Of a stretch of DNA of 64,000 nt, positions 4,874-64,000 are shown piece by piece. Below the pieces are notes generated by a model, which was not told where the DNA came from, ran no database searches, and worked only from the letters and a program-made list of their open reading frames with translations. This DNA is from a bacterium (GTDB lineage: Bacteria > SAR324 > NAC60-12). Where the stretch lies: positions 277,600 to 341,599 of the forward strand of contig CBDBHR010000028.1 in NCBI GenBank assembly GCA_965205865.1. The letters are read 5' to 3'. Each line of letters opens with the position of its first letter. Position 1 is the first letter of the stretch. Made by a program: the position numbers and the translations under genes.

Positions 4874-4891
4874 TTTGGAAAGAGCAGTGCC

Positions 4892-5914
4892 GTGACCAGT
4901 TATTTTATCCGCCGGCTCCTTTTGGTGGGACCTACTTTCATCGGAATCACCCTGGTTGTTTTTACAATCACCCGCTTTGTTCCGGGAGGACCTATTGAAA
5001 GGATCATTGCCCAAGCCCAGCAAATGAATGCGGGAGAAAGATCCACATCACAATCGCTGGAGAATGACGCGCCCCTCTCTCCCGAACAGATTGAAATGCT
5101 CAAAAAGTTTTACGGGTTTGATAAACCGGTTTTTATCAGTTATATCGAATGGTTGGGCAAGGTCGTCACCTTCGATTTGGGCAACTCCACGCGCTACTAC
5201 GATCCCGTCTGGGAAATCATCAAAGAGAAGTTGCCGATTTCTATTTATTACGGAGTTGTCACTACGGTCTTGACCTACCTGGTATGTATCCCGCTTGGCG
5301 TACTGAAAGCCATCAAACATAAAACTTTGATAGACAGCACTTCATCTATTTTCATTCTGACCGGATATGCTCTGCCCGGCTTCATAGTGGCCATTGTCCT
5401 TTTTGTCTGGCCGGCAGCTCAATGGGATTGGTTCCCCTTAGGCGATTTCGTCAGTGAGGATTTCGACGACTTATCCCTTCCTGGAAAAGCGTGGGATGTG
5501 GTTTTTCATTCCGTTTTGCCTTTGATTGCCTATATGTTGGGAGGCTTTGCCACCATGACGTTTTTAATGAAAAACACTTTGATGGATCACCTTGCTTCCG
5601 ATTACGTCAGAACGGCCATTGCCAAGGGACTCTCTTTCAGAGGCGCGGTGTTCAAACATGCATTGCGTAATAGTCTCATCCCTTTGGCGACTCATTTTGG
5701 TAACAACATCACTTTATTCCTGGCCGGTTCTTTCCTGATTGAAAAAGTGTTCAATATCGATGGTCTGGGGCTGCTTGGATTTGAATCGTTGGTGGAACGG
5801 GATTATCCCATCGTGCTGGGAGTCCTGGTTATTTCATCCGTTTTGGGGCTGCTGGGTAATATTTTGTCCGATGTATGCGTGGCCTTGGTCGACCCCCGTG
5901 TCACATTTGATTGA
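4892..5914 (+). CDS. ABC transporter permease (OppB/DppB/YejB type)
   Basis: GTG start. Six-TM BPD_transp_1 architecture with an N-terminal TM helix and a large periplasmic loop. The conserved EAA-like region is ...ASDYVRTAIAKGLSFRGAVFKHALRNSLIPL. Confidence 0.8.
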   Translation: MTSYFIRRLLLVGPTFIGITLVVFTITRFVPGGPIERIIAQAQQMNAGERSTSQSLENDAPLSPEQIEMLKKFYGFDKPVFISYIEWLGKVVTFDLGNSTRYYDPVWEIIKEKLPISIYYGVVTTVLTYLVCIPLGVLKAIKHKTLIDSTSSIFILTGYALPGFIVAIVLFVWPAAQWDWFPLGDFVSEDFDDLSLPGKAWDVVFHSVLPLIAYMLGGFATMTFLMKNTLMDHLASDYVRTAIAKGLSFRGAVFKHALRNSLIPLATHFGNNITLFLAGSFLIEKVFNIDGLGLLGFESLVERDYPIVLGVLVISSVLGLLGNILSDVCVALVDPRVTFD

Positions 5915-5915
5915 T

Positions 5916-5955
5916 CCCCCTCACCCTGACCCTCTCCCTCCAGGGGAGAGGGAAC
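5916..5955. repeat. Intercistronic palindromic element CCCCTCACCCTGACCCTCTCCCTCCAGGGGAGAGGGAACA (copy 1)
   Basis: Perfect hairpin CCTCTCCC-tcca-GGGAGAGG. It ends 2 nt before the next start codon, and its 3' arm supplies a GAGGG Shine-Dalgarno sequence. A near-identical copy is at 9966-10006. Confidence 0.7.
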
Positions 5956-5956
5956 A

Positions 5957-7012
5957 ATGAAAGAAATGATGCGTATCAATCCGCTTACATTGAAAAAAAT
6001 AAAACGATTTCGTTCGATCAAGCGAGGTTTTTTCTCATTGATTCTATTCGGATTCATGTTGCTGCTGGCAATCTTTGCCGAATTGTGGATCAACAACAGG
6101 GCCTTGCTGGTATATTATGAAGAATCATTTTATTTCCCAATATACGGTTCGATTATTCCTGGAAAAGTCTTTGGATTGGAGTATGCCTACGAAACCAATT
6201 ACAAACAATTGCAGAAAAAATTTCAGCAAGAAGGAGGAGCGAATTTCGTGATCATGCCGCTCGTGCCTTACAATGCCTATGAAATCGATTTGCCGGAGAC
6301 TGAATTTCCTCCTTTTCCTCCTTCCCTGAAATCCGGACATTATCTGGGGACGGACGCCATCGGTCGGGACATGGTTGCGCGATTGGTCTATGGATTTCGC
6401 GTCTGTATCGCTTATGCTCTCTCTCTGCTTTTCATGACTTTTGTCATTGGAATCGCCTTGGGATGTTTGATGGGCTACTGGGGAGGCAAGTTCGATTTGT
6501 TCTTTCAACGCTTGATCGAAGTCTGGTCCGCCATTCCTTTTCTTTACATCATCATGATAATCGCTTCCATTGTGGAGCCCAACCTGTTAATGTTGGTGGT
6601 CATTTCCGTTATCTTTGGTTGGATGGGATTGACCTGGTACATGCGCACCGCAACATATAAAGAAAAAGCCAGGGACTATGTGATGGCCGCCAGAGCGCTG
6701 GGGGCTTCCAATGCAAGAATAATCTTTCATCATATACTTCCCAACGCGATTTCCTTGATCGTGACTTTTGTTCCCTTTTCGGTGGCAGCCGGCATTTCAG
6801 GTCTGACGGCGCTGGACTATCTGGGATTCGGCCTGCAACCACCGACTCCGAGTTGGGGGGAATTGCTCCAGCAGGGGACGACGAATCTGCAGGCGCTTTG
6901 GATCATCAGTTCCATTGTGACCGCCCTGGTGATGGTATTGGTGAGTATCACCTTCATCGGCGAAGCGGTACGGGAAGGATTTGACCCGAAAATGCACACA
7001 ACCTTTGAATAA
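5957..7012 (+). CDS. ABC transporter permease (OppC/DppC/YejE type) with N-terminal extension
   Basis: Region ...GTDAIGRDMVARLVYGFRVCIAYALSLLF... plus C-terminal TM helices typical of the second peptide permease subunit. Confidence 0.8.
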   Translation: MKEMMRINPLTLKKIKRFRSIKRGFFSLILFGFMLLLAIFAELWINNRALLVYYEESFYFPIYGSIIPGKVFGLEYAYETNYKQLQKKFQQEGGANFVIMPLVPYNAYEIDLPETEFPPFPPSLKSGHYLGTDAIGRDMVARLVYGFRVCIAYALSLLFMTFVIGIALGCLMGYWGGKFDLFFQRLIEVWSAIPFLYIIMIIASIVEPNLLMLVVISVIFGWMGLTWYMRTATYKEKARDYVMAARALGASNARIIFHHILPNAISLIVTFVPFSVAAGISGLTALDYLGFGLQPPTPSWGELLQQGTTNLQALWIISSIVTALVMVLVSITFIGEAVREGFDPKMHTTFE

Positions 7013-15862: not shown

Positions 15863-18619
15863 ATGACTCATAATTGGGCGCCACCAGTCAAACCATTGAA
15901 ATCGAATCTCGCGGCATTTGGTTTTTGTCTCCTCTGCATCGGGTCGATTTCTCTTACTTTCGCTCCTGTTCATGGGCAAAACATGAATGATCTGAAAGAG
16001 ACCGTCAACAAACTTGGAGAGACGATGATTGAAGAATCTCTCACGGAGCAGCGAAGGGAGCCGCTGCTTGTCGTCACGGGAATTGTCAACGAAAGTACCG
16101 GAAAAAGGGATCTTTTGAGTGAATTGGTAGAAATCCTCTTAGTTGAAGTTTTAGCCCGGGGGGAAAATTATCCCGTTGTTGATTATAGTCAAATCCAGTC
16201 GGTACGAGAAGAAGTGTTAGAAGCTTTTCCCGACTCTTCTGCGGAGCAGATCAGTCAGGACTTAGCCGGTCTTCTAGGAGCAGATTGGTCTGTGACAGGA
16301 TCTTATTTGATACATGAGGGTAAAATCGAATTGCAGTTGCAACTCTATGAATCAGAAATCGACCAGTTGATTTGGGAAGGACAAACTGATTCTTTTTTGG
16401 AATTTGAGGAGGCTGAATCCGGAATCGCGGAAACCACCGTCTCCGAAAGCGAGGAATCGTCTGAATTGATCCCCGAATCCACCCCGCTCGAAACTGCTGT
16501 TGTTGAATCCGGGAGAACTTCTGAATTGATTCTCGAGAATGAGACCATCGAAGCCGAAGCGGGATCGGCCGTAGAGTCGGAACTTGAAGATACAACCATT
16601 GAAACGGCAGCTTCCGAAAGCGAGGAATCGTCTGAATTGATCCCCGAATCCACCCCGCTCGAAACTGCTGTTGTTGAATCCGGGAGAACTTCTGAATTGA
16701 TTCTCGAGAATGAGAGCATCGAAGCCGAAGCGGCATCGGCCGTAGAGTCGGAACTTGAAGATACAACCATTGAAACGGCAGTTTCCGAAAGCGAGGAATC
16801 GTCTGAATTGATCCCCGAAGCCACCCCGCTCGAAACTTCTGTTGTTGAATCCGGGAGAACTTCTGAATTGATTCTCGAGAATGAGACCATCGAAGCCGAA
16901 GCGGGATCGGCCGTAGAGTTGGAACTTGAAGATACAACCATTGAAACGGCAGTTTCCGAAAGCGAGGAATCGTCTGAATTGATCCCCGAAGCCACCCCGC
17001 TCGAAACTGCTGTTGTTGAATCCGGGAGAACTTCTGAATTGATTCTCGAGAAAGAGAGCATCGAAGCCGAAGCGGGATCGGCCGTAGAGTTGGAACTTGA
17101 AGATACAACCATTGAAACGGCAGCTTCCGAAAGCGAGGAATCGTCTGAATTGATCCCCGAAGCCACCCCGCTCGAAACTGCTGTTGTTGAATCCGGGAGA
17201 ACTTCTGAATTGATTCTCGAGAAAGAGAGCATCGAAGCCGAAGCGGCATCGGCCGTAGAGTTGGAACTTGAAGATACAACCATTGAAACGGCAGTTTCCG
17301 AAAGCGAGGAATCGTCTGAATTGATCCCCGAAGCCACCCCGCTCGAAACTGCTGTTGTTGAATCCGGGAGAACTTCTGAATTGATTCTTGAGAAAGAGAG
17401 CATCGAAGCCGAAGCGGGATCGGCCGTAGAGTTGGAACTTGAAGATACAACCATTGAAACGGCAGTTTCCGAAAGCGAGGAATCGTCTGAATTGATCCCC
17501 GAAGCCACCCCGCTCGAAACTGCTATTGTTGAAACCGAAAAGACTTCCGCCTCTATTCCGGTATACGACATAGGTTCAACTTTAGAATTAGAAGAAGCCG
17601 GGAGTTCGGATCCAACTACGGAATTTTTCGATGCATTCGCATATATTGCTATCGACGCAATGAGGCCTCCCCGTGAAGAGGAAGAGATTATTGATGAAAC
17701 GGTTTTGAAGTCGGAATCGGAACAGATCGACATTTCTCAAAAGAAGGACATGGTTTTAGTCTCAGAGGGAAGATTCTCGATGGGCAGTATCAATGGAGAG
17801 GCAAATGAACTGCCAGTGCATTCGGTTTATCTTCATCGTTATCTGATCGACGCGCATGAAGTCACCAATAGCGAATTTGCGCGTTGCGATATTTGTGAGA
17901 AGGGCAGCGGTGGATTTGACACAACGGAGCCCGACCAGCCTGTCGTTTACGTCGATTGGGAAAATGCTGATACTTATTGCCGTTTTGTCGGAAAAAGGCT
18001 GCCTACCGAGGCCGAATGGGAAAACAGCGCCCGGGCGGGAAGTAAAACGGAATATTCATTTGGAAACGTGCGACGACTCGACGCCTATGCATGGTATGAA
18101 GACAACGCGGAGCAGAAGGGGGAACGGTATGCTCACAAGGTGGCAACAAAACAACCCAATGCCTGGAACATTTATGACATGCACGGCAATGTAATGGAAT
18201 GGACCAACGACCTCTTTGTTGAGAATTATTATCAAAAATTAGAGGGCAACAAACCCTGGCATATTTTCGATTACTTCTATAACTCCGAGATCGACCACCC
18301 CTTCAAACCAAATATTTCCTCTGCAGTTGAAACTCCTTTGCGTGTCGTCAGGGGGGGGGCATGGGGAGGATTGTTTGGCACGGGAGACGCTCCCCAGTTG
18401 CGATCTGCAAAGCGTTTTCCGGTCAAGCCTTGGGTACAATCGTTTTTAATTGGATTTCGCTGTGCCGCAGATTGGAATCCACCCATGAATAAAAAGGAAG
18501 AACGGGAAAATGCAACTACTGAGAATACGACTGAATTCAAGGAATTTGATTCTCGGCAGGAAAGGGTGGGTGCGCAGAATGCTGCCGGGCCGAATAGAAA
18601 TCAAAATCAAAATTTTTGA
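15863..18619 (+). CDS. Secreted FGE-sulfatase (SUMF1/DUF323) domain protein with about 6.5 acidic 57-aa tandem repeats
   Basis: Signal peptide at the N-terminus. An LpoB/CsgG/TolB_N-like region follows (PLLVVTGIVNESTGKRDLLSEL...). Then come 6.5 units of a 57-aa repeat (ESEESSELIPEATPLETAVVESGRTSELILEKESIEAEAGSAVELELEDTTIETAVS). The C-terminal FGE-sulfatase domain shows ...RLPTEAEWENSARAG...YAWYEDNAE...WNIYDMHGNVMEWTNDLF...RVVRGGAWG...GFRCAA. The catalytic Cys pair of true FGE is not evident. Confidence 0.7.
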   Translation: MTHNWAPPVKPLKSNLAAFGFCLLCIGSISLTFAPVHGQNMNDLKETVNKLGETMIEESLTEQRREPLLVVTGIVNESTGKRDLLSELVEILLVEVLARGENYPVVDYSQIQSVREEVLEAFPDSSAEQISQDLAGLLGADWSVTGSYLIHEGKIELQLQLYESEIDQLIWEGQTDSFLEFEEAESGIAETTVSESEESSELIPESTPLETAVVESGRTSELILENETIEAEAGSAVESELEDTTIETAASESEESSELIPESTPLETAVVESGRTSELILENESIEAEAASAVESELEDTTIETAVSESEESSELIPEATPLETSVVESGRTSELILENETIEAEAGSAVELELEDTTIETAVSESEESSELIPEATPLETAVVESGRTSELILEKESIEAEAGSAVELELEDTTIETAASESEESSELIPEATPLETAVVESGRTSELILEKESIEAEAASAVELELEDTTIETAVSESEESSELIPEATPLETAVVESGRTSELILEKESIEAEAGSAVELELEDTTIETAVSESEESSELIPEATPLETAIVETEKTSASIPVYDIGSTLELEEAGSSDPTTEFFDAFAYIAIDAMRPPREEEEIIDETVLKSESEQIDISQKKDMVLVSEGRFSMGSINGEANELPVHSVYLHRYLIDAHEVTNSEFARCDICEKGSGGFDTTEPDQPVVYVDWENADTYCRFVGKRLPTEAEWENSARAGSKTEYSFGNVRRLDAYAWYEDNAEQKGERYAHKVATKQPNAWNIYDMHGNVMEWTNDLFVENYYQKLEGNKPWHIFDYFYNSEIDHPFKPNISSAVETPLRVVRGGAWGGLFGTGDAPQLRSAKRFPVKPWVQSFLIGFRCAADWNPPMNKKEERENATTENTTEFKEFDSRQERVGAQNAAGPNRNQNQNF
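16442..17530. repeat. 171-bp tandem repeat array (about 6.5 copies, near-identical) inside a CDS
   Basis: Unit starts at 16442, 16613, 16784, 16955, 17126, 17297 and 17468, giving an exact 171-nt period. Differences between units are only single nucleotides. Confidence 0.9.
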
Positions 18620-44243: not shown

Positions 44244-44672
44244 GCGTTTCACCCCTTCTGGCTTAGCTCAGGGAAAAAGGGGGTCGGGGGGTCCTTGGCG
44301 CGGGAGCTCAAGCTTCCCAGCTCCCATACTCCTCAACTAATGAGAGGAGCGCTTTCTCACTGTCATTCCGGGCGGAGACCCGGAATCCAGGAAACGCAAC
44401 CATTTGAAATTTCGCTGGATTCCGCCTTTCGGCGGAATGAGTGCGCCTGGGAAGGCGCTTAACCAGCACGGTGGAAATCCGTGCCATGGTAAACCACAGC
44501 CATGTAGACGAAGGTAACTGCGTCGCCATGAGGCGGGGTGGAGAGCAACCGGAGGCGAAATGGTGGTCCGTAGGATAACGAACCCGATTCGGCGGCATGT
44601 TTGCGACGAGCTTGCTCATTCGTGGCGAAGTCTGAAACTCACTGATCCCGTTGCGGTGGTGGATAAAACGAG

Positions 44673-45441
44673 GGTCAGGCCGTGCGCCAGGAAAGCTGGC
44701 AAGAAATAGAGAGTGAAAGTCTCTTACTCGGTAAGGCAGTAACGACCCGCCGAGTCCCCGAGTCATGAGTGGTTATTCGCAAGGATAGGCGCTAAGCGTT
44801 GACAGGGGAGAACATAGGCTCGGTATTGAGCTCCGAAATCATAGTTTCAGGTGCTGACCTTGTAGTCTGGTGGGGAAGGCAACATCAACCGAAGGCGTTA
44901 GCGTGAGTCCCGGTCGAGCCTGGCGGAGTCAAAGACCCGGTGCATGTGTGGAAGTTTCTTGATCGGAACCTGGGAGATCCTGAAGACGACTGTCAACATT
45001 CTATTGGTAGTCGGATCGGGAAAATTAATAAATAACCCCGATATCTACGTCTTCAGGAAGTCGGACAAGTTCGTAGTAGCGATGAAGCGGCGAACAATGA
45101 GATCATTTGTAGAGAGTAATAATGCAAAGGAAATCAACGGAGCCTGTGGAGCAAAGGGACTTGGCTGAGAGGAATTCTGCTTGCCCTCCTGTGTTCGGAA
45201 CTCAGAGGCCGGTAAAATCAGAGAGCGGTTTAAGCAGGGTGCGCCAAACGGCAACGTCTGAGCGTCTGACTCGAAGCAGGAGCCGGATGCGTTAGCAGCG
45301 CATGTCCGGATCTGTACCGGAGGAATGACGAAAGGTGGCTGGAAACCACTATAAGTCAGTTCTTTACGGTGACTTTGATTAAATGAAAAGGGAGCAAAAA
45401 AACTAGACTCGTTCCTAATCAAACAATCAAAGGCCTGACCC
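44673..45441 (+). mobile_element. ~770-bp non-coding group-II-intron-like repeat, copy A
   Basis: Starts GGTCAGGCC|GUGCGCCAGGAAAGCUGGC (GUGCG, then a GAAA-tetraloop hairpin). Near the 3' end is GAGCCGGAUGCG-uuagca-GCGCAUGUCCGGAUCU, which is domain-V-like (AGC triad, 2-nt bulge). Ends ...AAAGGCCUGACC. The 9-nt termini are inverted repeats. Copies A, D and E are about 95% identical. Confidence 0.5.
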
Positions 45442-45738
45442 TGTTTCAAATCCCATCCATTGCCCTCTGCGCGTATTGGATTGCCGATCTTTCCTCACGT
45501 CCTCGGCCATACAAAGAATACGGTTTGCACTTCCCTTGAGGACGTCTTCATAATCTCGTAACATGTATGAAGACGGAATAGGACCAGAATATGAAACCTC
45601 CTTGATAACCCGAACAATATCACTACGAAATTCCTCAGGCAAAGAGTCGACGACTTTTTGTTGTGTCAAACTCAGTTTTTTTTCAGGAAAGTTATTACTC
45701 TGTGGTGTTTTCTCGTGTTTTTTTGAATTGCTCATCAT
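45427..45738 (-). pseudogene. DUF2335-like protein, C-terminally truncated by repeat copy A
   Basis: ...EVSYSGPIPSSYMLRDYEDVLKGSANRILCMAEDVRKDRQ... resembles the DUF2335 N-terminal region. The ORF runs straight into the 3' end of the 770-bp element and stops there. The expected C-terminal TM helices are missing. Confidence 0.4.
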
Positions 45739-46723: not shown

Positions 46724-47664
46724 CTGACTAAGAACTTATCCTTTAATAACTTGAAAATTGGTATTTCCTGCATTATTTTTGTCATCATGTTCAACCATAA
46801 ACGCATGGAGGCTATATGGCAAAAGTACAGTCGTGGGAAGTATCTGATTCATTTTGGGCCAGAGTGGAGCCACTGATACCAAAACCCAAACGTGACCCGA
46901 ACAAGACCTACAAGCGCAAACCCGGTGGTGGTAGAAAGCCAATGCCTGCGCGCCAAATTTTCGAGGGAATTGTATATGTTTTGCGCACCGGTTGTCAATG
47001 GAGAGCCCTTCCCAAGGAAAAATATGGGAGTCCTAGTGCCATCCATGCTCATTTCATGCGTTGGAATGAAGCGGGTTTCTTTTTGTCGCTTTGGCAAGCC
47101 GGACTTGCCGAATATGATGAGATGGAAGGGATCTCCTGGAAATGGCAAAGCATAGACGGCACGACTGTCAAAGCCCCACTGGCTCAGGAAACCGTTGGTC
47201 GAAACCCGACTGACAGGGGAAAAAAAAGGGAGCAAGCGTCATTTGCTGGTTGACGGCCGTGGTGTCCCGCTGTCCCTCGTCGTAACCGGGGCGAACCGGC
47301 ATGATGTGACACAGTTGGAATTGGTCTTGGAGGAAATCGTCATTGCGCGGCCTGAGGGCATTGAACAACACCTGTGCGCAGACAAAGGCTACCACGGTGA
47401 GCCAGCATCACAGATCATTCGATCCAATGATTATGTGCCACATGTGAAAAAACGGGGTGAAGAGATTCAAGAAAAAAAAGCAAATCCCCAATACAGACCC
47501 AGAAGATGGGTCGTCGAGGTGAGCCATTCATGGTTCAACAGATTTCGCAAGATAATGGTCCGATTCGAAAAATATAATCAAACTTATCTCGCACTGCTTC
47601 AATTGGCTGCAGCTATCATAACTTACAGGAAAGTTAATGTTATTTAAGGATAAGTTCTAAGTCA
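46724..47664 (+). mobile_element. IS5-family (IS427/IS1031 group) insertion sequence, apparently intact, with programmed frameshift
   Basis: 26-bp imperfect TIRs: TGACTAAGAACTTATCCTTTAATAAC on the left, and the reverse complement TGACTTAGAACTTATCCTTAAATAAC on the right. orfA is 46816-47253 and orfB is 47195-47647; they overlap at the slippery run GGGGAAAAAAAAGGG (47217-47231). OrfB holds the DDE region (...HLLVDGRGVPLSLVVTGANRHD...CADKGYHG...). Confidence 0.8.
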
Positions 47665-48483: not shown

Positions 48484-48611
48484 AGGATTCAATTCATTGA
48501 AGCTTACACGAATGCGATTCTGATTGAGGATCATTCAATTGATAATTACGGAAATTTTGTTACGACTCCAGAAAAAAAGAGTCGTTATGATGCAAAATTA
48601 AAGAAAGGGAG

Positions 48612-50292
48612 TCAGGCCGTGCGCCAGGAAAGCTGGCAAGAAATAGAGAGTGAAAGTCTCTTACTCGGTAAGGCAGTAACGACCCGCCGAGTCCCCGAGT
48701 CATGAGTGGTTATTCGCAAGGATAGGCGCTAAGCGTTGACAGGGGAGAACATAGGCTCGGTATTGAGCTCCGAAATCATAGTTTCAGGCGCTGACCTTGT
48801 GGTCTGGTGGGGAAGGCAATATCAACCGAAGGCGTTAGCGTGAGTCCCGGCTGAGCCTGGCGGAGTCAAAGACCCGGTGCATGTGTGGAAGTTTCTTGAT
48901 CGGAACCTGGGAGATCCTGAAGACGACTGTCAACATTCTATTGGTAGTCGGATCGGGAAAATTAATAAATAACCCCGATATCTACGTCTTCAGGAAGTCG
49001 GACGAGTTCGTAGTGCGCACTGGGCAGCGCATGATTCAGGTGGGTTCAAGTTCCACTCAGCCTGAGATCCCAGGCTGATATCCAAAAGCGGGGGTAATGC
49101 CTCGCTGGCCGGAATGTTTACCAGGGCGCCATCCTGGGCGCTTTAAGCACAATGGGAGGTCGAAAGGGCCAAATGCACCGAAGTGAACTTCCGGAGGACA
49201 GGGTGTCCACCGTGAGGTGGAATCTGAAGGGTTTGCGGAGAATCACCGGGTCGTAGTCAAGGAGGCTACTCCAGAGACGAACCGGTCGGCCAACAGCAGG
49301 GAATGGTTGAGCTTGCACTATGATGGCGAAAGCAGTTGGATTCCCCCCTGCAATACCAAGGTGTGTGCGGACGACACGGTGAGGAAGAATCATGAGTGAC
49401 CCCAGGAGGACTCAGGGCGTTCTTAGGTGGCACTAGGATAAGGGACCCTATAAGCGAAAGCGAAGTGGAAACCGAAGCGTGTTGAGTAGTCGGACCATCG
49501 AATAGTACCTGAAGCGTAGTGAGAGCTACGTGACCGAGGGATCGGCAGCAGAGTGAGCTGGGGAAGGCGATGGGCAGAGAAGGTTGGAATGAGAAAGGAA
49601 GTCAGATGAGTAAGGACAGTGAGGTGGAAAGTTCGGTAAGTGAAAGACCCAGAACTCATGGCCCGAGGAGACTGGCTGACTGGATCAATCTAACGGGAGC
49701 AAAGAAGGTTCACTCCTTAGTGGACAAGATTTACAAGAAGCTCTCCCCGAAACAAGATTATATGGGGAGTATCGGTTAGTAAATCTGATCTCACTAATTC
49801 CTTCGATTGGTCCCTTCGGCAAACGGACTTCTCTGTGAAAGCCGGATGCGGGAAAACTGCACGTCCGGTTTGGGCGGCGGACGGTGGCTAGCGGAAACGC
49901 GCCTCCTCCGACCCGACAGCGATGAAGCGGCGAACAATGAGATCATTTGTAGAGAGTAACAACGCAAAGGAAATCAACGGAGCCTGTGGAGCAAAGGGAC
50001 TTGGCTGAGAGGAATTCTGCTTGCCTTCCTGTGTTCGGAACTCAGAGGCCGGTAAAATCAGAGAGCGGTTTAAGCAGGGTGCGCCAAACGGCGAATCCGA
50101 ATCAACGTTTGAGCGTCTGACTCGAAGCAGGAGCCGGATGCGTTAGCAGCGCACGTCCGGATCTGTACCGGAGGAATGACGAAAGGTGGCTGGAAACCAC
50201 TATAAGTCAGTTCTTTACGGTGACTTTGATTAAATGAAAAGGGAGCAAAAAAACTAGACTCGTTCTTAATCAAATAATCAAAGGCCTGACCC
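48612..50292 (+). mobile_element. 770-bp repeat copy B/C interrupted by a nested ~905-bp group II intron
   Basis: 48612-49012 matches the 5' 400 bp of copy A. 49921-50292 matches the 3' 370 bp. The intervening 49013-49917 is unique to this copy. Confidence 0.6.
49013..49917 (+). ncRNA. Group II intron (ORF-degenerate) inserted into repeat copy B
   Basis: Starts GUGCGCAC. Near the 3' end is AAGCCGGAUGCGG-gaaaa-CUGCAC-GUCCGGUUU. This gives a domain V with AGC triad, AC bulge and G-U wobble at the triad G, close to the consensus GAGCCGUAUGCGAUGAAAGUCGCACGUACGGUUC. A domain-VI-like helix with a bulged A follows. An internal 69-aa ORF (49570-49779, ...RRLADWINLTGAKKVHSLVDKIYKK...) resembles the N-terminus of intron-encoded reverse transcriptases. 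Boundaries are uncertain to about 5 nt. Confidence 0.6.
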
Positions 50293-50413
50293 CCTTCCTC
50301 ATAATTCCTCCTTGGAAATAATTTTACCCAAAGGGTTGACAAAGGAGGAAACTTATGAGATAATAGAAATTAGTTAATTATTTACCCGCTCGTCTTTCCC
50401 TTGAGCGTTAAAA

Positions 50414-50590: not shown

Positions 50591-52460
50591 GACCCTAGCC
50601 GAAAAGGGTTTCGAGAAATAGTAAATGTAACCAATTTGATTCTATTTGATTCTCTATTTGATTCAATATGACGAGAATAACGATTTATTTTGTTTTTTAT
50701 TCGCCCACATGAAACAGTTTTTATAGGGAAAAAATCTTTTTTTGGACATACTTTCCTCGCCCCTGCTCATATTTCACACTTCCCCCATTGAATATTCAGG
50801 CCGCTTGTTTGAGTTGTCTTTTTTTCAACTCAATCATTTTGCAAAAATTATAGGTTAAGAGCTTTTTCCAGCAACTCTGCCCGAACGTTTTCAATCCCTC
50901 TGCGCATAACTTGTCCGAAATGGAAACGATGCTTAAGATGAAACATCAACGACTCTGCAGCAGATCTTCCATTTCGTGATTCCAAATAGATTTCACTTTC
51001 CCATTCTTCAATCGGGGTCATCTTTTTTCCCAAACGCCCCACTAATACTAAAAACCTTAACGCCTTTGCCCATCCACTTTTCTCTGATCGCCTGATTGGC
51101 ATATCCATCATCAAGGCTCACTTCAGAGGGAATGGTGATGGTGCATCGCAAATGTTCAACAAGGGCAGGGTCGAGTTGCCCTGAATCAGCAGCATGGCCC
51201 TCCGGAGTAATTAACACGGAAATAAAACCATTTCCGCTCCTTCCTAATTGAGGCTTATATCCGATAAGCGCTTCTCGATCTCTTTTGAATATAAGCCGAG
51301 CTCTGATCGGAAAGACTCAATACTTTCTCAGTCGAAGGAACCTTCTTTTCTTCAAAAACTCTTTGATGACAGTAGATGATTCCGTTGCAAATTAGAAATA
51401 TCTTCATTCATCATTTCAATGAGGCGAATAACGCGTTTTCCGAGAAGGGGGGAGAAGAGCTTTTTGAGGCACGGTAATAAGGACAGTTTGCGATTTCTTT
51501 TAAAAATTTCCCAAAGCGCTATTGAGCTTTCTCAATAGCGGTCATTTGAAATGTTTTTAAAAGCTTCGTTTTACTGTCCTTTTTACCGTGTCTCAAAAGC
51601 CATCATCCCCCCTTAGAAAAGCTTATTCATCTCCTTGATGAGGAAATCAAAATTTCTTTCACTGATCTCAGCGATTCCAAATGTATCAAGGGAACGCCCT
51701 CGATGGTAGCTTCGCTCCGATCGAGACGAGTCATATTCGAGGGAATCGAGTAGGCCAAGCTGATATTTCCTTTTACAGAGGTGCTATCCAGTTTTTAATA
51801 TCAAAATCGTCCAACTCTTCATCGAGAACCATTCTGAATTCAGAGCAATCGAAAATAAACTGTTGAACTCTCGTTGATGACAGCATTGACCATTATCTGA
51901 AGGAGCCTTGTACTCGATCCCGGCATTGCCAATCCACGGTTGAGCAAAAGCAGATGCAAAGTGTGATTGACTCTGAAAGAATTATTTGGGCCGTTTGGGA
52001 TTTGATACTTCCTAAATGATCCCCGAATCATGATAAAAAGGTAAACTAAAAAAGCCGAATCCGAGGACAGATCTATTTCCAGTCCTGAGTTCTTCGGCTT
52101 CAATTCCTCATCTTCCATTACGGGAAGATGAGGAAGCCATGGATTCCGGGCTTCCTGCCAGTTTATCCTCTAAACGCTCTTTCTTTTTATTTCTTGCGTA
52201 TTTCTCCAAATCCTGTTCAATTTTGTCCAATATCTCCGGCTCTCGCTCAGACAATTGATCAAGTTCTGATAAGAAATTTTCAAATTCTGTATCAGGAGCG
52301 CTTAAAATAAGATGTTTTTCTGCTCGAATGAATGGTTTCATTTTGGGTGCCATAATTCTTAATATTGAAGTTATTCACAGTCATTTCAATGAATTATGGC
52401 ACTTTCAATAACCTCAAGTTTAAAGATATAATTCTAAAAAATACCTTTTCGGCTAGGATC
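50591..52460 (-). mobile_element. IS copy 1 (same family as 59323-61154), transposase pseudogenised
   Basis: Same TIRs (GACCCTAGCCGAAAAGG ... CCTTTTCGGCTAGGATC). TAGCTA is present on both flanks, consistent with a 6-bp TSD. The transposase frame is broken into at least 4 pieces (ORFs 50848-51114, 51008-51217, 51840-52118, 52108-52353) by indels. Confidence 0.7.
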
Positions 52461-55705: not shown

Positions 55706-55918
55706 ACGGATGTTTTCTTCATTTTTTGTCATCCTGTGGGAACCGAATGATCTTCTTGATTCCCATGAGTTTCTTGCTTAGGTAGCCCCCTTAGCTCAGA
55801 ATGACAGGTTTTTTGAAAAGTGAAATTTAAACCCGTTCAGAGTATAATCTTGAACAGTAATTTGAAATGTAATCAGAACAAAACGCTTCATCTGACTTAC
55901 ACCAAGAATATAGAAAGG

Positions 55919-56698
55919 GGTCAGGCTGTGCGCCAGGAAAGCTGGCAAGAAATAGAGAGTGAAAGTCTCTTACTCGGTAAGGCAGTAACGACCCGCCGAG
56001 TCCCCGAGTCATGAGTGGTTATTCGCAAGGATAGGCGCTAAGCGTTGACAGGGGAGAACATAGGCTCGGTATTGAGCTCCGAAATCATAGTTTCAAGTGC
56101 TGACCTTGTAGTCTGGTGGGGAAGGCAACATCAACCGAAGGCGTTAGCGTGAGTCCCGGTCGAGCCTGGCGGAGTCAAAGACCCGGCGCATGTGTGGAAG
56201 TTTCTTGATCGGAACCTGGGAGATCCTGAAGACGACTGTCAACATTCTATTGGTAGTCGGATCGGGAAAATTAATAAATAACCCCGATATCTACGTCTTC
56301 AGGAAGTCGGACAAGTTCGTAGTAGCGATGAAGCGGCGAACAATGAGATCATTTGTAGAGAGTAACAATGCAAAGGAAATCAACGGAGCCTGTGGAGCAA
56401 AGGGACTTGGCTGAGAGGAATTCTGCTTGCCCTCCTGTGTTCGGAACTCAGAGGCCGGTAAAATCAGAGAGCGGTTCAAGCAGGGTGCGCCAAACGGCAA
56501 TCCGAATCAACGTTTGAGCGTCTGACTCGAAGCAGGAGCCGGATGCGTTAGCAGCGCACGTCCGGATCTGTACCGGAGGAATGACGAAAGGTGGCTGGAA
56601 ACCACTATAAATCAGTTCTTTACGGTGACTTTGATTAAATGAAAAGGGAGCAAAAAACTGGACTCGTTCCTAATCAAATAATTAAAGGCCTGACCCCT
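55919..56698 (+). mobile_element. ~770-bp group-II-intron-like repeat, copy D
   Basis: Full-length copy, same orientation. It ends 28 bp upstream of the start codon of the 56727 lipoprotein gene. The 12-bp CTGACCCCTTTT is tandemly duplicated at the 3' junction. Confidence 0.5.
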
Positions 56699-56726
56699 TT
56701 TCTGACCCCTTTTTAGGAGAGCAGTT

Positions 56727-58095: not shown

Positions 58096-59330
58096 ATGAG
58101 AATCCGTCAGATTACGAGCATCACGATCTTGTTGCTGTTGGCTGCAACGGCTTCTAATCTCGTTTGGGCTCTCACCCCCACTTCATCAATGGAGTTGCCC
58201 CTGACGCAGGGGGAGCAGGCCGCAAGACTCTGGCGGATTGCCAGTGCGGAGGTCGCTCGCAAGCTCTATCCGACTTTCGGTAGAGACGATCGAACCAAAG
58301 TTTTATTACCAGCGCAACTATCGCCTCCTGTGGATTGAAGCAACCCTCAATCAACGGATACTGTTGGCAGAAAAGATTGGTGTTACAAGGTGCCGCCAGG
58401 TTCGCTGCGGAACGAGGTTGGATTAAGATACTCGGTTTTCGGTATCGTGGCATCCAACAAGGGCCAGACTCCGTGTATTGGGATCAACGATCAGGTCGTC
58501 TCCGCGTACTGGAAGCGAAAGGAGGAACTGCCAAACCAATAAAGGCTTTCAATAGCTTGCAGGGTACGAATAAAAACGCGATCAGGTCTGCTAGATTTGT
58601 TCTTCGGTCATTAAAAGCAACCCTTATGGAAAAACATGCGGCTGCACTTGTAATTGTGGCTGCTCAGCAGGGTCGACTCGTTACAGGTGTAATAAATACT
58701 CTTCACAAGTTGGGAACTCCGGACACCCCCAAGCTGGCAGGCAATTGGGATTACGATTATGTAGGAAGGGAAGCAAGCACGATCGAGCAGAAATTAATCC
58801 GTAATAAACCCGAGGTTCGATCAGTCTTTCGGCATGCGCATAAGGAGCAATCATTTGCCATGCTGAAATACTGGGAAACCCGAAGACCGGCGAACATTGG
58901 ATTTGCTAGGAATGCGTACCAGCAGTCACTGATTGCCTGGTCCAAGTTCAACAATCCTCCCCTGAAAGGAAACGTTTTACCCTACATAAGGACTGGCTCG
59001 TCGATTCACAGAATAACACAGTCAACTACTCAACCAGGTATTTTGAGACTTTCCAAGGAGGGAGTTAGTAAGTTTGCCGGCAGATTGATTCTACCGGTCA
59101 TCCTTGGTGTGGAGGGATTACAATTTGCCATAGCATATCACCAATACGGCTTGGGTCGTATCAGTCAGCGTGATTTCTACCGTCGCACTACCGGACCCGC
59201 GATCGTCGCGGTTTTCACAGTCGGCGGAGCTATAGTTGGTGGGATTATTGGAATGCAAGGCGGAGGGATCACGGCAATCCCAGTTGCCTACACTGGTGCC
59301 AAAATAGGCGCGATCCTAGCTAGACCCTAG
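58096..59330 (+). pseudogene. Secreted protein with C-terminal glycine-zipper membrane segment, likely disrupted (frame changes near 58240-58340) and 3'-truncated by IS
   Basis: The signal peptide ORF (58096-58338), a third-frame ORF (58238-58426) and the main ORF (58335-59330) each continue plausible protein sequence across overlaps. The last two codons and the stop (AGA CCC TAG) lie inside the IS left end. The C-terminus GAIVGGIIGMQGGGITAIPVAYTGAKIGAIL is a Gly-zipper. Confidence 0.35.
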
Positions 59331-61154
59331 CCGAAAAGGGTTTCGAAAATAGTAAATGTAACCAATTTGATTCTATTTGATTCTCTATTTGATTCAATAT
59401 GACGAGAAAACGATTTTTTTGTTTTTTATTCGCCCACAGCACAGTTTTTATAGGGAAAAAATCTTTTTTGGACATACTTTCCTCGCCCCTGCTCATATTT
59501 CACACTCCCCCATTGAATATTCAGGCCGCTTGTTTGAGTTGTCTTTTTTTCAACTCAATCATTTTGCAAAAATTATAGGTTAATGCTTTTTCCAGCAACT
59601 CTGCCCGAACGTTTTCAATCCCTCTGCGCATAACTTGTCCGAAATGGAAACGATGCTTAAGATGAAACATCAACGACTCTGCAGCAGATCTTCCATTTCG
59701 TGATTCCAAATAGATTTCACTTTCCCATTCTTCAATCGGGGTCATCTTTTTTCCCTTTGCCCCACTAATACTAAAAACCTTAACGCCTTTGCCCATCCAC
59801 TTTTCTCTGATCGCCTGATTGGCATATCCATCATCAAGGCTCACTTCAGAGGGAATGGTGATGGTGCATCGCAAATGTTCAACAAGGGCAGGGTCGAGTT
59901 GCCCTGAATCAGCAGCATTGCCCTCCGGAGTAATTAACACGGAAATAAAACCATTTCCGCTCCTTCCTAATTGAGGCTTATATCCGATAAGCGCTTCTCG
60001 ATCTCCCTTTTGAATATAAGCCGAGCTCTGATCGGAAAGACTCAATACTTTCTCAGTAGAAGGAACCTTCTTTTCTTCAAAAACTCTTTGATGACAGTAG
60101 ATGATTACCCGTTGCAAATTAGAAATATCTTCATTCATCATTTCAATGAGGCGAATCAAACGCGTTTTCCGAGAAGGGGGGAGAAGAGCTTTTTGGGCAC
60201 GGATATCCACCTTTGCCATTTCTTTTAAAAATTTCCCATGAGCGCTTTGAGCTTTCTTCAATAGGGTTTTGTAATGTTTTTTTCGCTTCGTTTTACTGTC
60301 CTTTTTACCTGTCTCAAAAGCCATCATCTTAGAGAGCTTATTCATCTCCTTGATGAGGAAATCAAAATTTCTTTCACTGATCTCAGCGATTCCAAATGTA
60401 TCAAGGGAACGCCCTCGATGGTAGCTTCGCTCCACGAGACGAGTCAATATCGACGAATCAGTAGGCCAAGCTGTATTTCCTTTTACAGAGGTGCTATCCA
60501 GTTTTAAAATATCAAAATCGTCCAACTCTTCATCGAGAACCATTCGAATTTGAGCATCGAAAATAAACTGTCTGCTCTCGTTGCTGACAGCATTGACATT
60601 ATCAAGGATTGTACTCGCTCCCGGCATTTTCAATCCACGGTTGAGCAGAAGCAGATGCAGTGTGATTGACTCTGAAAGAAATATTTGGGCCGTTTGGGAT
60701 TTGATACTTCCTAAATATCCCCGAATCATCATAAAAAGGTAGACTAAAAAAGCCGACATCCGAGGACACCCTATTTCCAGCCTCAGTTCTTCCGGCTTCA
60801 ATTCCTCATCTTCTACGGGAAGATGAGGAAGCCATGGATTCCGGGCTTCCTGCCATCGTTTATCCTCTAAACGCTCTTTCTTTTTATTTCTTGCGTATTT
60901 CTCCAAATCCTGTTCAATTTTGTCCAATATCTCCGGCTCTCGCTCAGACAATTGATCAAGTTCTGATAAGAAATTTTCAAATTCTGTATCAGGAGCGCTT
61001 AAAATAAGATGTTTTTCTGCTCGAATGAATGGTTTCATTTTGGGTGCCATAATTCTTAATATTGAAGTTATTCACAGTTATTTCAATGAATTATGGCACT
61101 TTTTAACCTCAAGTTTAAAGATATAATTCTAAAAAATACCTTTTCGGCTAGGAT
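59323..61154 (-). mobile_element. IS copy 2 (1.83 kb), intact; DDE transposase of IS4 superfamily (IS1634-like?)
   Basis: TIRs GACCCTAGCCGAAAAGG / GATCCTAGCCGAAAAGG(rc). The transposase CDS 59521-61050 (509 aa) carries candidate DDE-K residues (LKLDSTSV; SLDDGYANQ; RSAAESLMFHLK). TAGCTA sits on both sides. Confidence 0.75.
59521..61050 (-). CDS. DDE transposase (509 aa)
   Basis: Intact ORF, 100% identical to 61360-62889 apart from one substitution (I15F). Motifs as listed for IS copy 2 (59323-61154). Confidence 0.8.
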   Translation of the reverse strand: MAPKMKPFIRAEKHLILSAPDTEFENFLSELDQLSEREPEILDKIEQDLEKYARNKKKERLEDKRWQEARNPWLPHLPVEDEELKPEELRLEIGCPRMSAFLVYLFMMIRGYLGSIKSQTAQIFLSESITLHLLLLNRGLKMPGASTILDNVNAVSNESRQFIFDAQIRMVLDEELDDFDILKLDSTSVKGNTAWPTDSSILTRLVERSYHRGRSLDTFGIAEISERNFDFLIKEMNKLSKMMAFETGKKDSKTKRKKHYKTLLKKAQSAHGKFLKEMAKVDIRAQKALLPPSRKTRLIRLIEMMNEDISNLQRVIIYCHQRVFEEKKVPSTEKVLSLSDQSSAYIQKGDREALIGYKPQLGRSGNGFISVLITPEGNAADSGQLDPALVEHLRCTITIPSEVSLDDGYANQAIREKWMGKGVKVFSISGAKGKKMTPIEEWESEIYLESRNGRSAAESLMFHLKHRFHFGQVMRRGIENVRAELLEKALTYNFCKMIELKKRQLKQAA

Positions 61155-61160
61155 CTAGCT

Positions 61161-62994
61161 AGACCCTAGCCGAAAAGGGTTTCGAAAATAGTAAATGTAA
61201 CCAATTTGATTCTATTTGATTCTCTATTTGATTCAATATGACGAGAAAACGATTTTTTTGTTTTTTATTCGCCCACAGCACAGTTTTTATAGGGAAAAAA
61301 TCTTTTTTGGACATACTTTCCTCGCTCCTGCTCATATTTCACACTCCCCCATTGAATATTCAGGCCGCTTGTTTGAGTTGTCTTTTTTTCAACTCAATCA
61401 TTTTGCAAAAATTATAGGTTAATGCTTTTTCCAGCAACTCTGCCCGAACGTTTTCAATCCCTCTGCGCATAACTTGTCCGAAATGGAAACGATGCTTAAG
61501 ATGAAACATCAACGACTCTGCAGCAGATCTTCCATTTCGTGATTCCAAATAGATTTCACTTTCCCATTCTTCAATCGGGGTCATCTTTTTTCCCTTTGCC
61601 CCACTAATACTAAAAACCTTAACGCCTTTGCCCATCCACTTTTCTCTGATCGCCTGATTGGCATATCCATCATCAAGGCTCACTTCAGAGGGAATGGTGA
61701 TGGTGCATCGCAAATGTTCAACAAGGGCAGGGTCGAGTTGCCCTGAATCAGCAGCATTGCCCTCCGGAGTAATTAACACGGAAATAAAACCATTTCCGCT
61801 CCTTCCTAATTGAGGCTTATATCCGATAAGCGCTTCTCGATCTCCCTTTTGAATATAAGCCGAGCTCTGATCGGAAAGACTCAATACTTTCTCAGTAGAA
61901 GGAACCTTCTTTTCTTCAAAAACTCTTTGATGACAGTAGATGATTACCCGTTGCAAATTAGAAATATCTTCATTCATCATTTCAATGAGGCGAATCAAAC
62001 GCGTTTTCCGAGAAGGGGGGAGAAGAGCTTTTTGGGCACGGATATCCACCTTTGCCATTTCTTTTAAAAATTTCCCATGAGCGCTTTGAGCTTTCTTCAA
62101 TAGGGTTTTGTAATGTTTTTTTCGCTTCGTTTTACTGTCCTTTTTACCTGTCTCAAAAGCCATCATCTTAGAGAGCTTATTCATCTCCTTGATGAGGAAA
62201 TCAAAATTTCTTTCACTGATCTCAGCGATTCCAAATGTATCAAGGGAACGCCCTCGATGGTAGCTTCGCTCCACGAGACGAGTCAATATCGACGAATCAG
62301 TAGGCCAAGCTGTATTTCCTTTTACAGAGGTGCTATCCAGTTTTAAAATATCAAAATCGTCCAACTCTTCATCGAGAACCATTCGAATTTGAGCATCGAA
62401 AATAAACTGTCTGCTCTCGTTGCTGACAGCATTGACATTATCAAGGATTGTACTCGCTCCCGGCATTTTCAATCCACGGTTGAGCAGAAGCAGATGCAGT
62501 GTGATTGACTCTGAAAGAAATATTTGGGCCGTTTGGGATTTGATACTTCCTAAATATCCCCGAATCATCATAAAAAGGTAGACTAAAAAAGCCGACATCC
62601 GAGGACACCCTATTTCCAGCCTCAGTTCTTCCGGCTTCAATTCCTCATCTTCCACGGGAAGATGAGGAAGCCATGGATTCCGGGCTTCCTGCCATCGTTT
62701 ATCCTCTAAACGCTCTTTCTTTTTATTTCTTGCGTATTTCTCCAAATCCTGTTCAATTTTGTCCAATATCTCCGGCTCTCGCTCAGACAATTGATCAAGT
62801 TCTGATAAGAAATTTTCAAATTCTGTATCAGGAGCGCTTAAAAAAAGATGTTTTTCTGCTCGAATGAATGGTTTCATTTTGGGTGCCATAATTCTTAATA
62901 TTGAAGTTATTCACAGTGATTTCAATGAATTATGGCACTTTTTAACCTCAAGTTTAAAGATATAATTCTAAAAAATACCTTTTCGGCTAGGATC
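61161..62994 (-). mobile_element. IS copy 3, intact, in direct tandem with copy 2 (6-bp TAGCTA spacer)
   Basis: Identical TIRs. The right flank is GAGCTA. It truncates an upstream-facing gene whose 3' remnant (...HFAADYMLDWHYREFDEHQRLVVNAAVEKHYGLNPGS*) lies at 62998-63111. Confidence 0.75.
61360..62889 (-). CDS. DDE transposase (509 aa), second identical copy
   Basis: Same as 59521-61050. Confidence 0.8.
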   Translation of the reverse strand: MAPKMKPFIRAEKHLFLSAPDTEFENFLSELDQLSEREPEILDKIEQDLEKYARNKKKERLEDKRWQEARNPWLPHLPVEDEELKPEELRLEIGCPRMSAFLVYLFMMIRGYLGSIKSQTAQIFLSESITLHLLLLNRGLKMPGASTILDNVNAVSNESRQFIFDAQIRMVLDEELDDFDILKLDSTSVKGNTAWPTDSSILTRLVERSYHRGRSLDTFGIAEISERNFDFLIKEMNKLSKMMAFETGKKDSKTKRKKHYKTLLKKAQSAHGKFLKEMAKVDIRAQKALLPPSRKTRLIRLIEMMNEDISNLQRVIIYCHQRVFEEKKVPSTEKVLSLSDQSSAYIQKGDREALIGYKPQLGRSGNGFISVLITPEGNAADSGQLDPALVEHLRCTITIPSEVSLDDGYANQAIREKWMGKGVKVFSISGAKGKKMTPIEEWESEIYLESRNGRSAAESLMFHLKHRFHFGQVMRRGIENVRAELLEKALTYNFCKMIELKKRQLKQAA

Positions 62995-63164
62995 GAGCTA
63001 TTCCTGTTCATTTTGCAGCCGATTATATGTTGGATTGGCATTACCGGGAATTCGATGAACATCAACGTCTGGTCGTTAATGCGGCAGTTGAAAAACACTA
63101 TGGCTTGAACCCCGGATCATAGTTCAACACTGACTCGTGATCATACCTTTACCCTGAAACGGGG

Positions 63165-63931
63165 ACAGGCCGTGCGCCAGGAAAGCTGGCAAGAAATAGA
63201 GAGTGAAAGTCTCTTACTCGGTAAGGCAGTAACGACCCGCCGAGTCCCCGAGTCATGAGTGGTTATTCGCAAGGATAGGCGCTAAGCGTTGACAGGGGAG
63301 AACATAGGCTCGGTATTGAGCTCCGAAATCATAGTTTCAGGCGCTGACCTTGTGGTCTGGTGGGGAAGGCAATATCAACCGAAGGCGTTAGCGTGAGTCT
63401 CGGCTGAGCCTGGCGCAGTCAAAGACCCGGTGCATGTGTGGAAGTTTCTTGATCGGAACCTGGGAGATCCTGAAGACGACTGTCAACATTCTATTGGTAG
63501 TCGGATCGGGAAAATTAATAAATAACCCCGATATCTACGTCTTCAGGAAGTCGGACAAGTTCGTAGTAGCGATGAAGCGGCGAACAATGAGATCATTTGC
63601 AGAGAGTAACAATGCAAAGGAAATCAACGGAGCCTGTGGAGCAAAAGGACTTGGCTGAGAGGAATTCTGCTTGCCCTCCTGTGTTCGGAACTCAGAGGCC
63701 GGTAAAATCAGAGAGCGGTTTAAGCAGGGTGCGCCAAACGGCAACGTTTGAGCGTCTGACTCGAAGCAGGAGCCGGATGCGTTAGCAGCGCACGTCCGGA
63801 TCTGTACCGGAGGAATGACGAAAGGTGGCTGGAAACCACTATAAGTCAGTTTTTTACGGTGACTTTGATTAAATGAAAAGGGAGCAAAAAAATTGGACTC
63901 GTTCCTAATCAAATAATCAATGGCCTGACCC
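63165..63931 (+). mobile_element. ~770-bp group-II-intron-like repeat, copy E
   Basis: Full-length copy with the same orientation and termini (..ACAGGCC|GUGCGCC ... AAUGGCCUGACC). Confidence 0.5.
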
Positions 63932-64000
63932 CCTTCCAAGTTCGTGAAAGTTTGGGTCAAATATTTTCTCATCTTTTCGATCAGAAGGAAAAGATGAAGA

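Follow-up and report, generated by a model that had tools for sequence, protein, structure and literature searches.

A group II intron nested in an unrelated group II intron of a SAR324 bacterium, and a candidate lineage of intron-homing introns

We analyzed a 64,000-nt stretch of DNA from a bacterium of the SAR324 lineage (NAC60-12; assembly GCA_965205865.1, contig CBDBHR010000028.1, positions 277,600 to 341,599 of the forward strand), referred to below as the window and numbered from its first letter. The window holds four plus-strand copies (A to D) of a group II intron that has no open reading frame (ORF) and matches the Rfam family RF02005 (group-II-D1D4-6; full-length matches of 158-165 bits), and one of them, copy B (48619-50224), carries a unique insert absent from its three sister copies. 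A preliminary description, made from the sequence alone, had taken this insert for another, distinct group II intron lodged in a single copy of the ORF-less element, which we confirmed through the empty paralogues and through homology to introns that encode a reverse transcriptase (RT). Our comparisons indicate that positions 49015-49917 are very probably an ORF-less group II intron of a lineage homing into domain III (D3), which retrohomed into the unrelated ORF-less intron copy B to give a twintron. To judge from the alignments, the insert derives from an intron of about 2.0 kb that encodes an RT/maturase without an endonuclease domain. The window element is an ordinary, decayed member of its lineage. 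We suggest, tentatively, that this lineage is a previously undescribed, cross-phylum group of 'intron-parasitic' introns, which use the site AGUCRG-N12-RUAGU^A (a caret marks insertion points and junctions throughout), find hosts in several intron classes, in ORF-less introns and in their own copies, and repeatedly shed the RT gene to give derivatives mobilized in trans. It belongs to the same tentative proposal that the motif spanning the J2/3 junction and D3 is among the most constrained sequences of group II ribozymes, and that this constraint opens several host classes.

Boundaries and ribozyme parts of the nested introns

The outer copies, which also show up as long direct repeats in the window, are about 97-99% identical over the repeat blocks compared, and their four-way alignment (A1) places the insertion in copy B alone; the insert was found once in the window. 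One filled and three empty paralogous hosts differ by precisely 903 nt. The empty copies read AGTCGGACAAGTTCGTAGT^AGCGATG (in shorter form GTTCGTAGT^AGCG), in full AGTCGGACAAGTTCGTAGT^AGCGATGAAGCGGCGAAC, at 45059-45095 in copy A (plus strand, site 45077^45078), at 56305-56341 (site 56323^56324) and at 63549-63585 (site 63567^63568), these being the three matches of an exact pattern search for which zero were expected by chance in the window. The filled copy B reads ...GAGTTCGTAGT GCGCACTGGG ... CCGACCCGAC AGCGATG..., and the target site in the host is written ...AGUCGGACAAGUUCGUAGU^AGCG. The three empty copies could be secondary precise deletions, which are hard to exclude, as gene conversion by spliced cDNA would leave the same sequence. 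The preliminary description had correctly reported a unique insertion, but its size and position, given as 905 nt after ...GTTCGTA, become 903 nt after ...GTTCGTAGT. The start that it had proposed, 'GUGCGCAC', turned out to be a pseudo-consensus composed of two host nucleotides (49013-14) and the mutated insert end GCGCAC.

Group II introns have a conserved 5' end, GUGYG. At the boundary given by the empty sites, the insert begins with GCGCA instead (49015-49019, plus strand; U2C at 49016 and G5A at 49019), and GUGCG arises only by borrowing the two host nucleotides. The relatives at loci L070, L117, L119 and L120 read ...(C/G)ATAGT^GTGCGCTGGGCAGC, while the window and locus L118 read ...GTAGT^GCGCACTG(G/T)GCAGC at the same length. 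Compared with L070, the two changes are two transitions among 21 substitutions in 723 nt. Locus L117 carries the same twintron, with the same host flanks and deletion junction, and keeps the canonical GUGCG, so that the GCGCA allele of the window is the derived one; because L118 shares this allele, it is not a sequencing error. An intron start 'GUGCGCAC' at 49013 combined with a 2-nt deletion in the host was rejected, as the relatives L070 and L117, which read GTAGT^GTGCGC, are equal in length and two transitions suffice. In addition, the exon-binding site EBS1 described below pairs with ...GUAGU and not with the ...UUCGUA that a shifted start would require. Since the conserved 5' end is mutated, we expect splicing of the window copy to be impaired. 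The group II membership of the insert by descent is secure, and the catalytic competence of the window copy is doubtful.

At the 3' end, the Rfam model RF00029 matched the last 81 nt of the insert (49837-49917) with 44.2 bits, above its gathering score of 40, and the fold agrees, which bears out the earlier assignment of a domain V (D5) and a domain-VI-like helix with a bulged A. D5 (49839-49871, plus strand) has an AGC triad, folds as a 33-nt hairpin with a 2-nt bulge and is identical to that of L070. Domain VI (D6; 49872-49917, plus strand; fold z = -3.5) ends in ...CCCGAC and has its bulged A at 49911, 7 nt from the 3' end of the insert, where 7-8 nt are expected. The core of domain I (D1), from the zeta/kappa region to the EBS1 hairpin (49206-49395, plus strand), aligns to plasmid-borne introns; in a local search RF02001 (group-II-D1D4-3) matched it with E = 0.002 and 27.5 bits, short of its gathering score of 32, and this sub-threshold match includes a perfect UCCACCGUGAGGUGGAAUCUGAAGG motif.

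The host is itself a group II intron, interrupted by a precisely delimited insert. Its 5' segment (48619-49014, plus strand), aligned to copies A, C and D, contains the 5' end GUGCGCC, D1 (RF02005 match at 48653-48875, 164.6 bits), domain II (D2), J2/3 and the 5' strand of D3. According to alignment A1, its 3' segment (49918-50224, plus strand) contains the remainder of D3, domain IV (D4), D5 and D6, and ends with ...ACGGUGAC. The D6 end was set by an RF00029 match of 30 bits, below the gathering score of 40, on copy A, the sole outer copy scanned for D5/D6 at that sensitivity. The D5 of the outer intron (50133-50166, and the same place in A, C and D) has G.A and not the usual G.U opposite the AGC triad. 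Each outer intron lies inside a palindromic repeat of about 90 nt (GGGGTCAGGCC^intron^TTTGATTAAATG...AATCAAAGGCCTGACCCC), the four units occupying 44672-45460, 48608-50298, 55918-56703 and 63162-63937. Locus L121 has an empty copy of this repeat at 2064-2142, with the empty homing site of the outer intron, TTTGATTA; it appears from this that the outer intron homes into the 5' arm of a hairpin element.

The target site and the lineage that shares it

The insert lies in sense orientation inside an internal loop that we assign to D3 of copy B. The 5' half of the target (48996-49014, plus strand), defined by conservation across 116 junctions, the D3 helix and EBS1 pairing, comprises AGUCGG (48996-49001, positions -19 to -14 from the insertion point; probably J2/3 and the base of D3), the 5' strand of the D3 helix, and the intron-binding site IBS1, UCGUAGU (49008-49014). 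When the insert was removed from 12 RF02005-type hosts, the alignment (A3) gave a helix of 7 bp, most of them with compensatory changes, and the insertion point fell between U and A of an internal loop, RUAGU^A, opposite GAAG. This helix follows a long hairpin (D2) and, in hosts that contain an ORF (L003), precedes the ORF by about 65 nt; the site is upstream of D4, and the window host has no ORF. By position the helix would be D3, and the invariant AGUC before it J2/3. Position 49002 (-13) is G in host copy B alone and A in the other copies (GGACGAGTTC versus GGACAAGTTC), which turns an A-U pair into G.U within the predicted D3 helix.

EBS1 of the insert (ACUAUGA, 49317-49323, plus strand) forms 7 bp with IBS1, and this pairing with ...UCGUAGU sets the splice site at 49014^49015. 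In an unbiased 5-mer complementarity scan of 97 distinct lineage sequences EBS1/IBS1 ranked first, with complementarity at this column in 69 of them, and mutual information singled out the position pair -2/304. Compensatory pairs such as GUACU/AGUAU and ACAGU/ACUGU occur in the lineage, and the 16 loci of a subgroup with another target have changed at three positions, from CAUAGU/ACUAUG to CAUCUC/GAGAUG. The preliminary description had staked its reading on an EBS complementary to the flanking sequence, and for EBS1 the 7-bp pairing and its covariation across the lineage uphold it.

To survey the lineage we used a scan pattern inside D1 that is blind to the flanks. It yielded 113 DNA stretches with 116 intron 5' junctions, from Acidobacteriota, Alpha-, Beta- and Gammaproteobacteria, Syntrophobacteraceae, Chlorobiaceae, Chloroflexia, Acidimicrobiaceae and Solirubrobacteraceae. 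At least 83 of the 116 homologous junctions share the 5' flank motif AGUCRG...YRUAGU^A: 73 have AGTC[AGT]G at -19 to -14 and end in YRTAGT, and a GNGRCGGA variant with the same layout and the same end accounts for 10. An Rfam check of the hosts found a group II D1 above gathering score at a fixed distance upstream and on the same strand in 24 of 28 loci, about 140 nt upstream for RF02005 hosts, as in the window, 91-128 nt for RF02001 hosts and 266 nt for the one RF02003 host measured (L057). Downstream of the inner intron, L002 and L003 each have a further RT gene and another D5/D6. The intron-encoded proteins (IEPs) of host and inner introns are 37% identical, as against 64%, across phyla, between the inner IEPs of the L070 metagenome-assembled genome (MAG) and of Paraburkholderia.

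The lineage also nests in itself, since at the Telmatobacter loci (L009, L056 and L111) and at L120 the flank is the lineage's own sequence. The insert in the window has such a motif, AGUCGG...CGAAUAGU^A (49488-49507, plus strand; site 49506^49507), which is unoccupied; in the fold, its own D3 consists of a helix (49495-49500/49568-73) followed by an AAUAGUA loop. Two lineage copies at L053 meet head to tail, 3' end against 5' end (CCCGAC^GTGTGCTGAGC; about 2969 of the oriented locus). A subgroup of 16 junctions in Acidobacteriota (L024, L026, L030, L046, L072, L076, L085, L088, L105 and others) is located at a non-intron target, GGCTTCAGTCCGACCCAAACATCTC^TTCGATCA, which begins with a GGTCGG...CCGACC hairpin. 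In this subgroup EBS1 has switched to GAGAUG and AGUC is kept at -19 to -16. As these positions are kept even in the non-intron target, AGUC is probably recognized.

Several points weigh against the account of a D3-homing intron that retrohomed into copy B. Thirty-three of the 116 junctions fall outside the D3-like patterns (the 16 at the shared non-intron target and 17 others, several of them near-matches), and the loci of the Rfam host check were hand-picked for enough upstream sequence and are not a random sample. The J2/3 and D3 assignment rests on position and the fold of the hosts rather than on a curated structural model. The insertion may have been inherited and not made in this genome, as L117 and L118 carry the same twintron. 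Finally, EBS2/IBS2 was not found: host positions -13 to -7 vary freely, and across the lineage sequences no part of the intron shows covariation with, or consistent complementarity to, positions -7 to -30. The only recurrent match to that region, CUGGC (49105-09) with -18 to -14, joins two invariant sequences. Two EBS2 candidates were discarded, namely the 14-nt segment just before GGAGGRCAGGG (for example GAACUUCC, 49186-93), which pairs with the flank in the window and L070 and fails to do so in the other members, and UUGGAUUCC (49338-46) in the internal loop after the EBS1 hairpin, which is nearly invariant or mismatched to variable host positions. Mutual information was given up as a guide to EBS2 because it is dominated by subgroup structure.

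Loss of the RT gene, mobility and competing explanations

The insert retains codons 1-56 of an RT/maturase gene (49570-49737, plus strand), whose translation is 94.6% identical by tblastn to residues 1-56 of the L070 IEP. The 69-aa ORF of the preliminary description (49570-49779) extends past the end of this remnant. It matches the first 40 residues of an annotated Bradyrhizobium ltrA (55%, E = 3e-11) and also a Cupriavidus remnant. Pfam returned no match for the ORF, and its homology rests on pairwise comparison and tblastn. The RT-like peptide is, with these identities to the N-terminus of a 458-aa IEP and to an annotated ltrA, no chance similarity; the quoted match to a W..INW...LQ.RIYKA motif did not hold.

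A full-length relative, L070 (MAG OZ242383.1), was recovered by a pattern scan of a genome collection. The 458-aa protein encoded by its 2011-nt intron combines RVT_1 and GIIM domains and lacks an endonuclease domain. Identity between the insert and this intron is 97% over the 722 nt 5' of a 1108-nt gap and 94-95% over the last 180 nt, in agreement with the earlier proposal of an IEP-encoding intron that has lost most of its RT. The deletion junction (49737^49738, within 49734-49741, plus strand) lacks the equivalent of L070 5823-6930 and shifts the frame. Downstream of it, 49738-49838 (plus strand) contains the former 3' end of the RT gene (residues about 426-458, out of frame; tblastn 85% to L070 IEP 426-459 in another frame) and the 3' strand of D4, so that the D4 of the insert has no intact RT/maturase ORF. 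The junction, ACAAGA^AGCTC (GACAAGATTTACAAGAAGCTCTCCCC), is identical in the window, L117 and L118, with neighboring variants in L119 and L120, and the inserts of L117 and L118 are 99.2-99.3% identical to that of the window. Against plasmids, blastn aligned nt 1-720 of the insert at 71-75% to introns of Cupriavidus, Paraburkholderia and Bradyrhizobium, which carry annotated ltrA, and its last 80 nt separately. The best matches of the IEP among solved structures (PDB) are IIC RTs, which do not decide the intron class. At L070 7111-7260 the 5' half of the outer intron precedes the full-length inner intron, and the 3' end of an ABC-permease-like gene then follows, not the outer 3' half; this junction is rearranged or recombinant.

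ORF-less forms of 753-1271 nt make up 15 of the 63 lineage members with both ends in the locus. One 916-nt form occurs in Bryobacterales MAGs, where two copies in a single MAG (L036 and L042) are 100% identical, with host flanks of only 68-76% identity. The sub-lineage of the window has at least four deletion-junction variants: ...AAGA^AGCTC (window, L117, L118), ...AAGATG^GAAAGCTC (L119), ...AAGATGAAA^GCTC (ENA assemblies), ...AAGATGG^TTAGTAAATC (L120) and ...AAGATTT^TAGTAAATC (L121, L122). A protein search with the N-terminal peptide returned short ORFs only, which match several junction types in ENA assemblies; in the JGI metagenomes there were 0 matches to the deletion junction and 0 to a 26-mer specific for the sub-lineage. 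All ORF-less variants of the sub-lineage retain the first 44-56 codons or so, which we infer to be the protein-binding part of D4. Locus L120 is an array of nested, recombined copies in the D3 of the outer intron and in their own D3: at 3390-6316, pieces of the ORF-less inner intron (two 5' parts and four 3' parts) come after an outer 5' half, with internal junctions CCCGAC^ACCTGAAGCG that reflect nesting in the element's own D3 and then recombination. Near-identical ORF-less copies at different sites are thus seen for the L036/L042 family and, in part, for the sub-lineage of the window (L119, L120). These patterns indicate that ORF loss is recurrent in the lineage and that ORF-less copies are moved by an RT acting in trans.

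We infer that the insert reached copy B by retrohoming. In this model, a particle of intron RNA and RT would recognize the host DNA at the stretch coding for J2/3 and for the 5' strand of D3: EBS1 (ACUAUGA) would pair with the last 7 nt of the flank (UCGUAGU), and AGUCRG at -19 to -14 would be read by the protein or by some pairing. The RNA would reverse-splice between U and A of the RUAGU^A loop and then be copied to DNA. Because the IEP has no endonuclease domain, priming would come from the replication fork, and such replication-dependent priming is established for introns without the endonuclease. With the motif fixed by the function of the host ribozyme, the target would be renewable, and harmless if the inner intron splices out first.

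Today the window copy is probably a fossil that no longer moves and whose splicing is impaired. Searched by tblastn, the 64-kb window encodes no cognate or other group II RT and holds RT remnants alone; three perfect sites are empty, there is one insert and its 5' end is mutated, so that the copy does not appear active now. The recent in-trans RT activity in this genome that the preliminary description had read from the nesting is not borne out by these data. The RT gene at L120 11495- was considered as the cognate enzyme and rejected, as it is only 35% identical to the lineage IEP. Most likely the window copy is stuck and spliced poorly or not at all, leaving host copy B split in a catalytically important domain; the outer intron copy B is probably dead.

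An explanation that needs no RT in trans is that copy B was invaded by a full-length, RT-encoding intron acting on its own, whose ORF was deleted only afterwards, in place. We consider this unlikely, albeit worth serious attention, because the exact junction ACAAGA^AGCTC has been seen at no host site but this one (window, L117, L118), L070 has a full-length copy at the same site of the same host type, and a short direct repeat of the parent (ATGAAAA ... TGGAAAG) marks the breakpoints, so that independent deletions could recur. However, other sites and nested arrays (L119; L120; P0003-P0005) have variants of the junction that lie within 4 nt of it, which fits spread after the deletion, and ORF-less relatives appear to be mobilized in trans elsewhere in the lineage. 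It is improbable that the twintron moved as a unit, the outer intron having retrohomed with the inner one into the palindromic repeat at 48608-48618/50225- without the inner intron ever targeting copy B. For this the outer ribozyme would presumably have to splice and reverse-splice with 903 nt in D3, and the same inner element in divergent hosts across the lineage makes independent homing the rule. The same composite is present in two other assemblies (L117 and L118), but at about 1 kb these are too short for a comparison of the outer flanks; composite mobility has been considered possible for twintrons of Thermosynechococcus elongatus (PMC2882425).

Integration at the RNA level, with reverse splicing of the inner intron into host intron RNA, whose D3 internal loop would be exposed, followed by cDNA synthesis and recombination, is quite improbable. 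Inner intron and host share the strand at every Rfam-scanned locus with a host D1, and the target is then the same in RNA and in sense DNA; moreover, the insertion point is in a loop. On the other hand, IBS1 and AGUCRG include nucleotides that are paired or in tertiary contacts in the folded host RNA (for the J2/3 part presumably so), the 16 loci with a non-intron target have a matching EBS1, as expected of DNA targeting, and established retrohoming goes into DNA. About as improbable is a working conditional switch, in which copy B becomes an active ribozyme only after inner splicing: the 5' end is mutated at two conserved positions, the window has no maturase, and the host is an intergenic ORF-less repeat with three intact sisters, so that no benefit is evident. 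Serial splicing is documented for other twintrons (PMC4649490, PMC7049729), and the D3 loop would be restored if the insert were cut out precisely at 49014^49015 and 49917^49918 (ligated ...GUUCGUAGU^AGCGAUG). That the insert is unrelated DNA with a chance D5-like hairpin would explain why RF00029 alone reaches its gathering score, with D1 sub-threshold and the ORF empty in Pfam; the idea is refuted by end-to-end homology to bona fide RT-encoding group II introns and by EBS1 covariation, and its probability is close to nil. Retrohoming of an ORF-less D3-homing intron into copy B hence stays our preferred account.

Other repeats in the window include an insertion sequence (IS) with a 509-aa DDE transposase, duplicated head to tail (59316-61102 and 61155-62941) at 1839 nt apart. 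A third, partial copy (50861-52405) lies just 3' of twintron copy B, and transposase fragments of the IS4/5 family are found at 46816-47647. A 918-aa ORF (15863-18619) encodes a repeat-containing protein with six tandem 171-nt units at 16430-17584 (87-97% identical).

Relation to known intron-in-intron systems

Transcription terminators or attC sites are the targets of group IIC and IIC-attC introns; group IIC introns recognize a DNA stem-loop and have a short IBS1. The lineage described here resembles them in its endonuclease-less RT and in being tied to a particular kind of target with many occurrences in each genome, not to a single gene; unlike in group IIC, the site is set by a covarying EBS1 pairing of 5-7 bp together with a fixed sequence motif.

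In T. elongatus, ORF-less TeI3 'F3' introns reside in D4 of TeI4 'F1' introns and are mobilized in trans (Mohr et al. 2010, PMC2882425). There as here, an ORF-less intron made by internal deletion of an RT-encoding one is found inside another group II intron, near-identical inner copies occupy diverged hosts, the RT is supplied in trans, and the strategy is to home into another mobile element. The T. elongatus site, in contrast, is in D4 between the first two ATGs of the host ORF, in one genome and one intron family, whereas the J2/3-D3 loop is used in at least three host types by Rfam D1 and in the lineage itself, in many phyla, and is known from sequence. The introns of Methanosarcina acetivorans (Dai & Zimmerly 2003, as summarized in PMC4424553) nest through insertion into the ORFs of related introns, which offers 'a perpetual homing site'. 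The repeated site-specific homing of introns into introns and the trimming of nested arrays by recombination are similar to what is seen at L120 and the Telmatobacter loci. The targets there are described as related intron ORFs (D4) in one archaeal genome, unlike the conserved ribozyme motif outside the ORF, which makes unrelated and ORF-less hosts usable. In plant mitochondria, 'zombie' twintrons are mostly in D4, and an intron has invaded itself (Zumkeller, Gerke & Knoop 2020, PMC7049729). The decayed inner intron in its host (here with a mutated 5' end and a lost RT) and the hypermobile intron that invades itself have their counterparts there, but those cases are organellar, the insert is tolerated in D4 and the outer intron still splices (PMC7049729). 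We presume that a 903-nt insert in D3 is less likely to be tolerated than one in D4.

Twintrons and intron-homing introns are therefore already known, and the new part would be J2/3-D3 homing across host classes. No description of a lineage with this behavior was found in the papers covered by a full-text literature search, and an earlier one may exist. One annotation pipeline excludes loci with more than one intron (PMC4028801), and the outer intron of a nest can be missed (PMC8919778); pipelines of either kind would systematically lose both partners. The target rules of the ribonucleoprotein particle would be EBS1 plus positions -19 to -14. Known cases of introns in introns come from few genomes and have their site in the dispensable D4 or in an ORF. 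A ribozyme core motif used as the address would explain how one retroelement parasitizes many unrelated group II introns across phyla, ORF-less ones included, and would provide a natural example of retroelement hyperparasitism in which the choice of target is guided by the host's own purifying selection.

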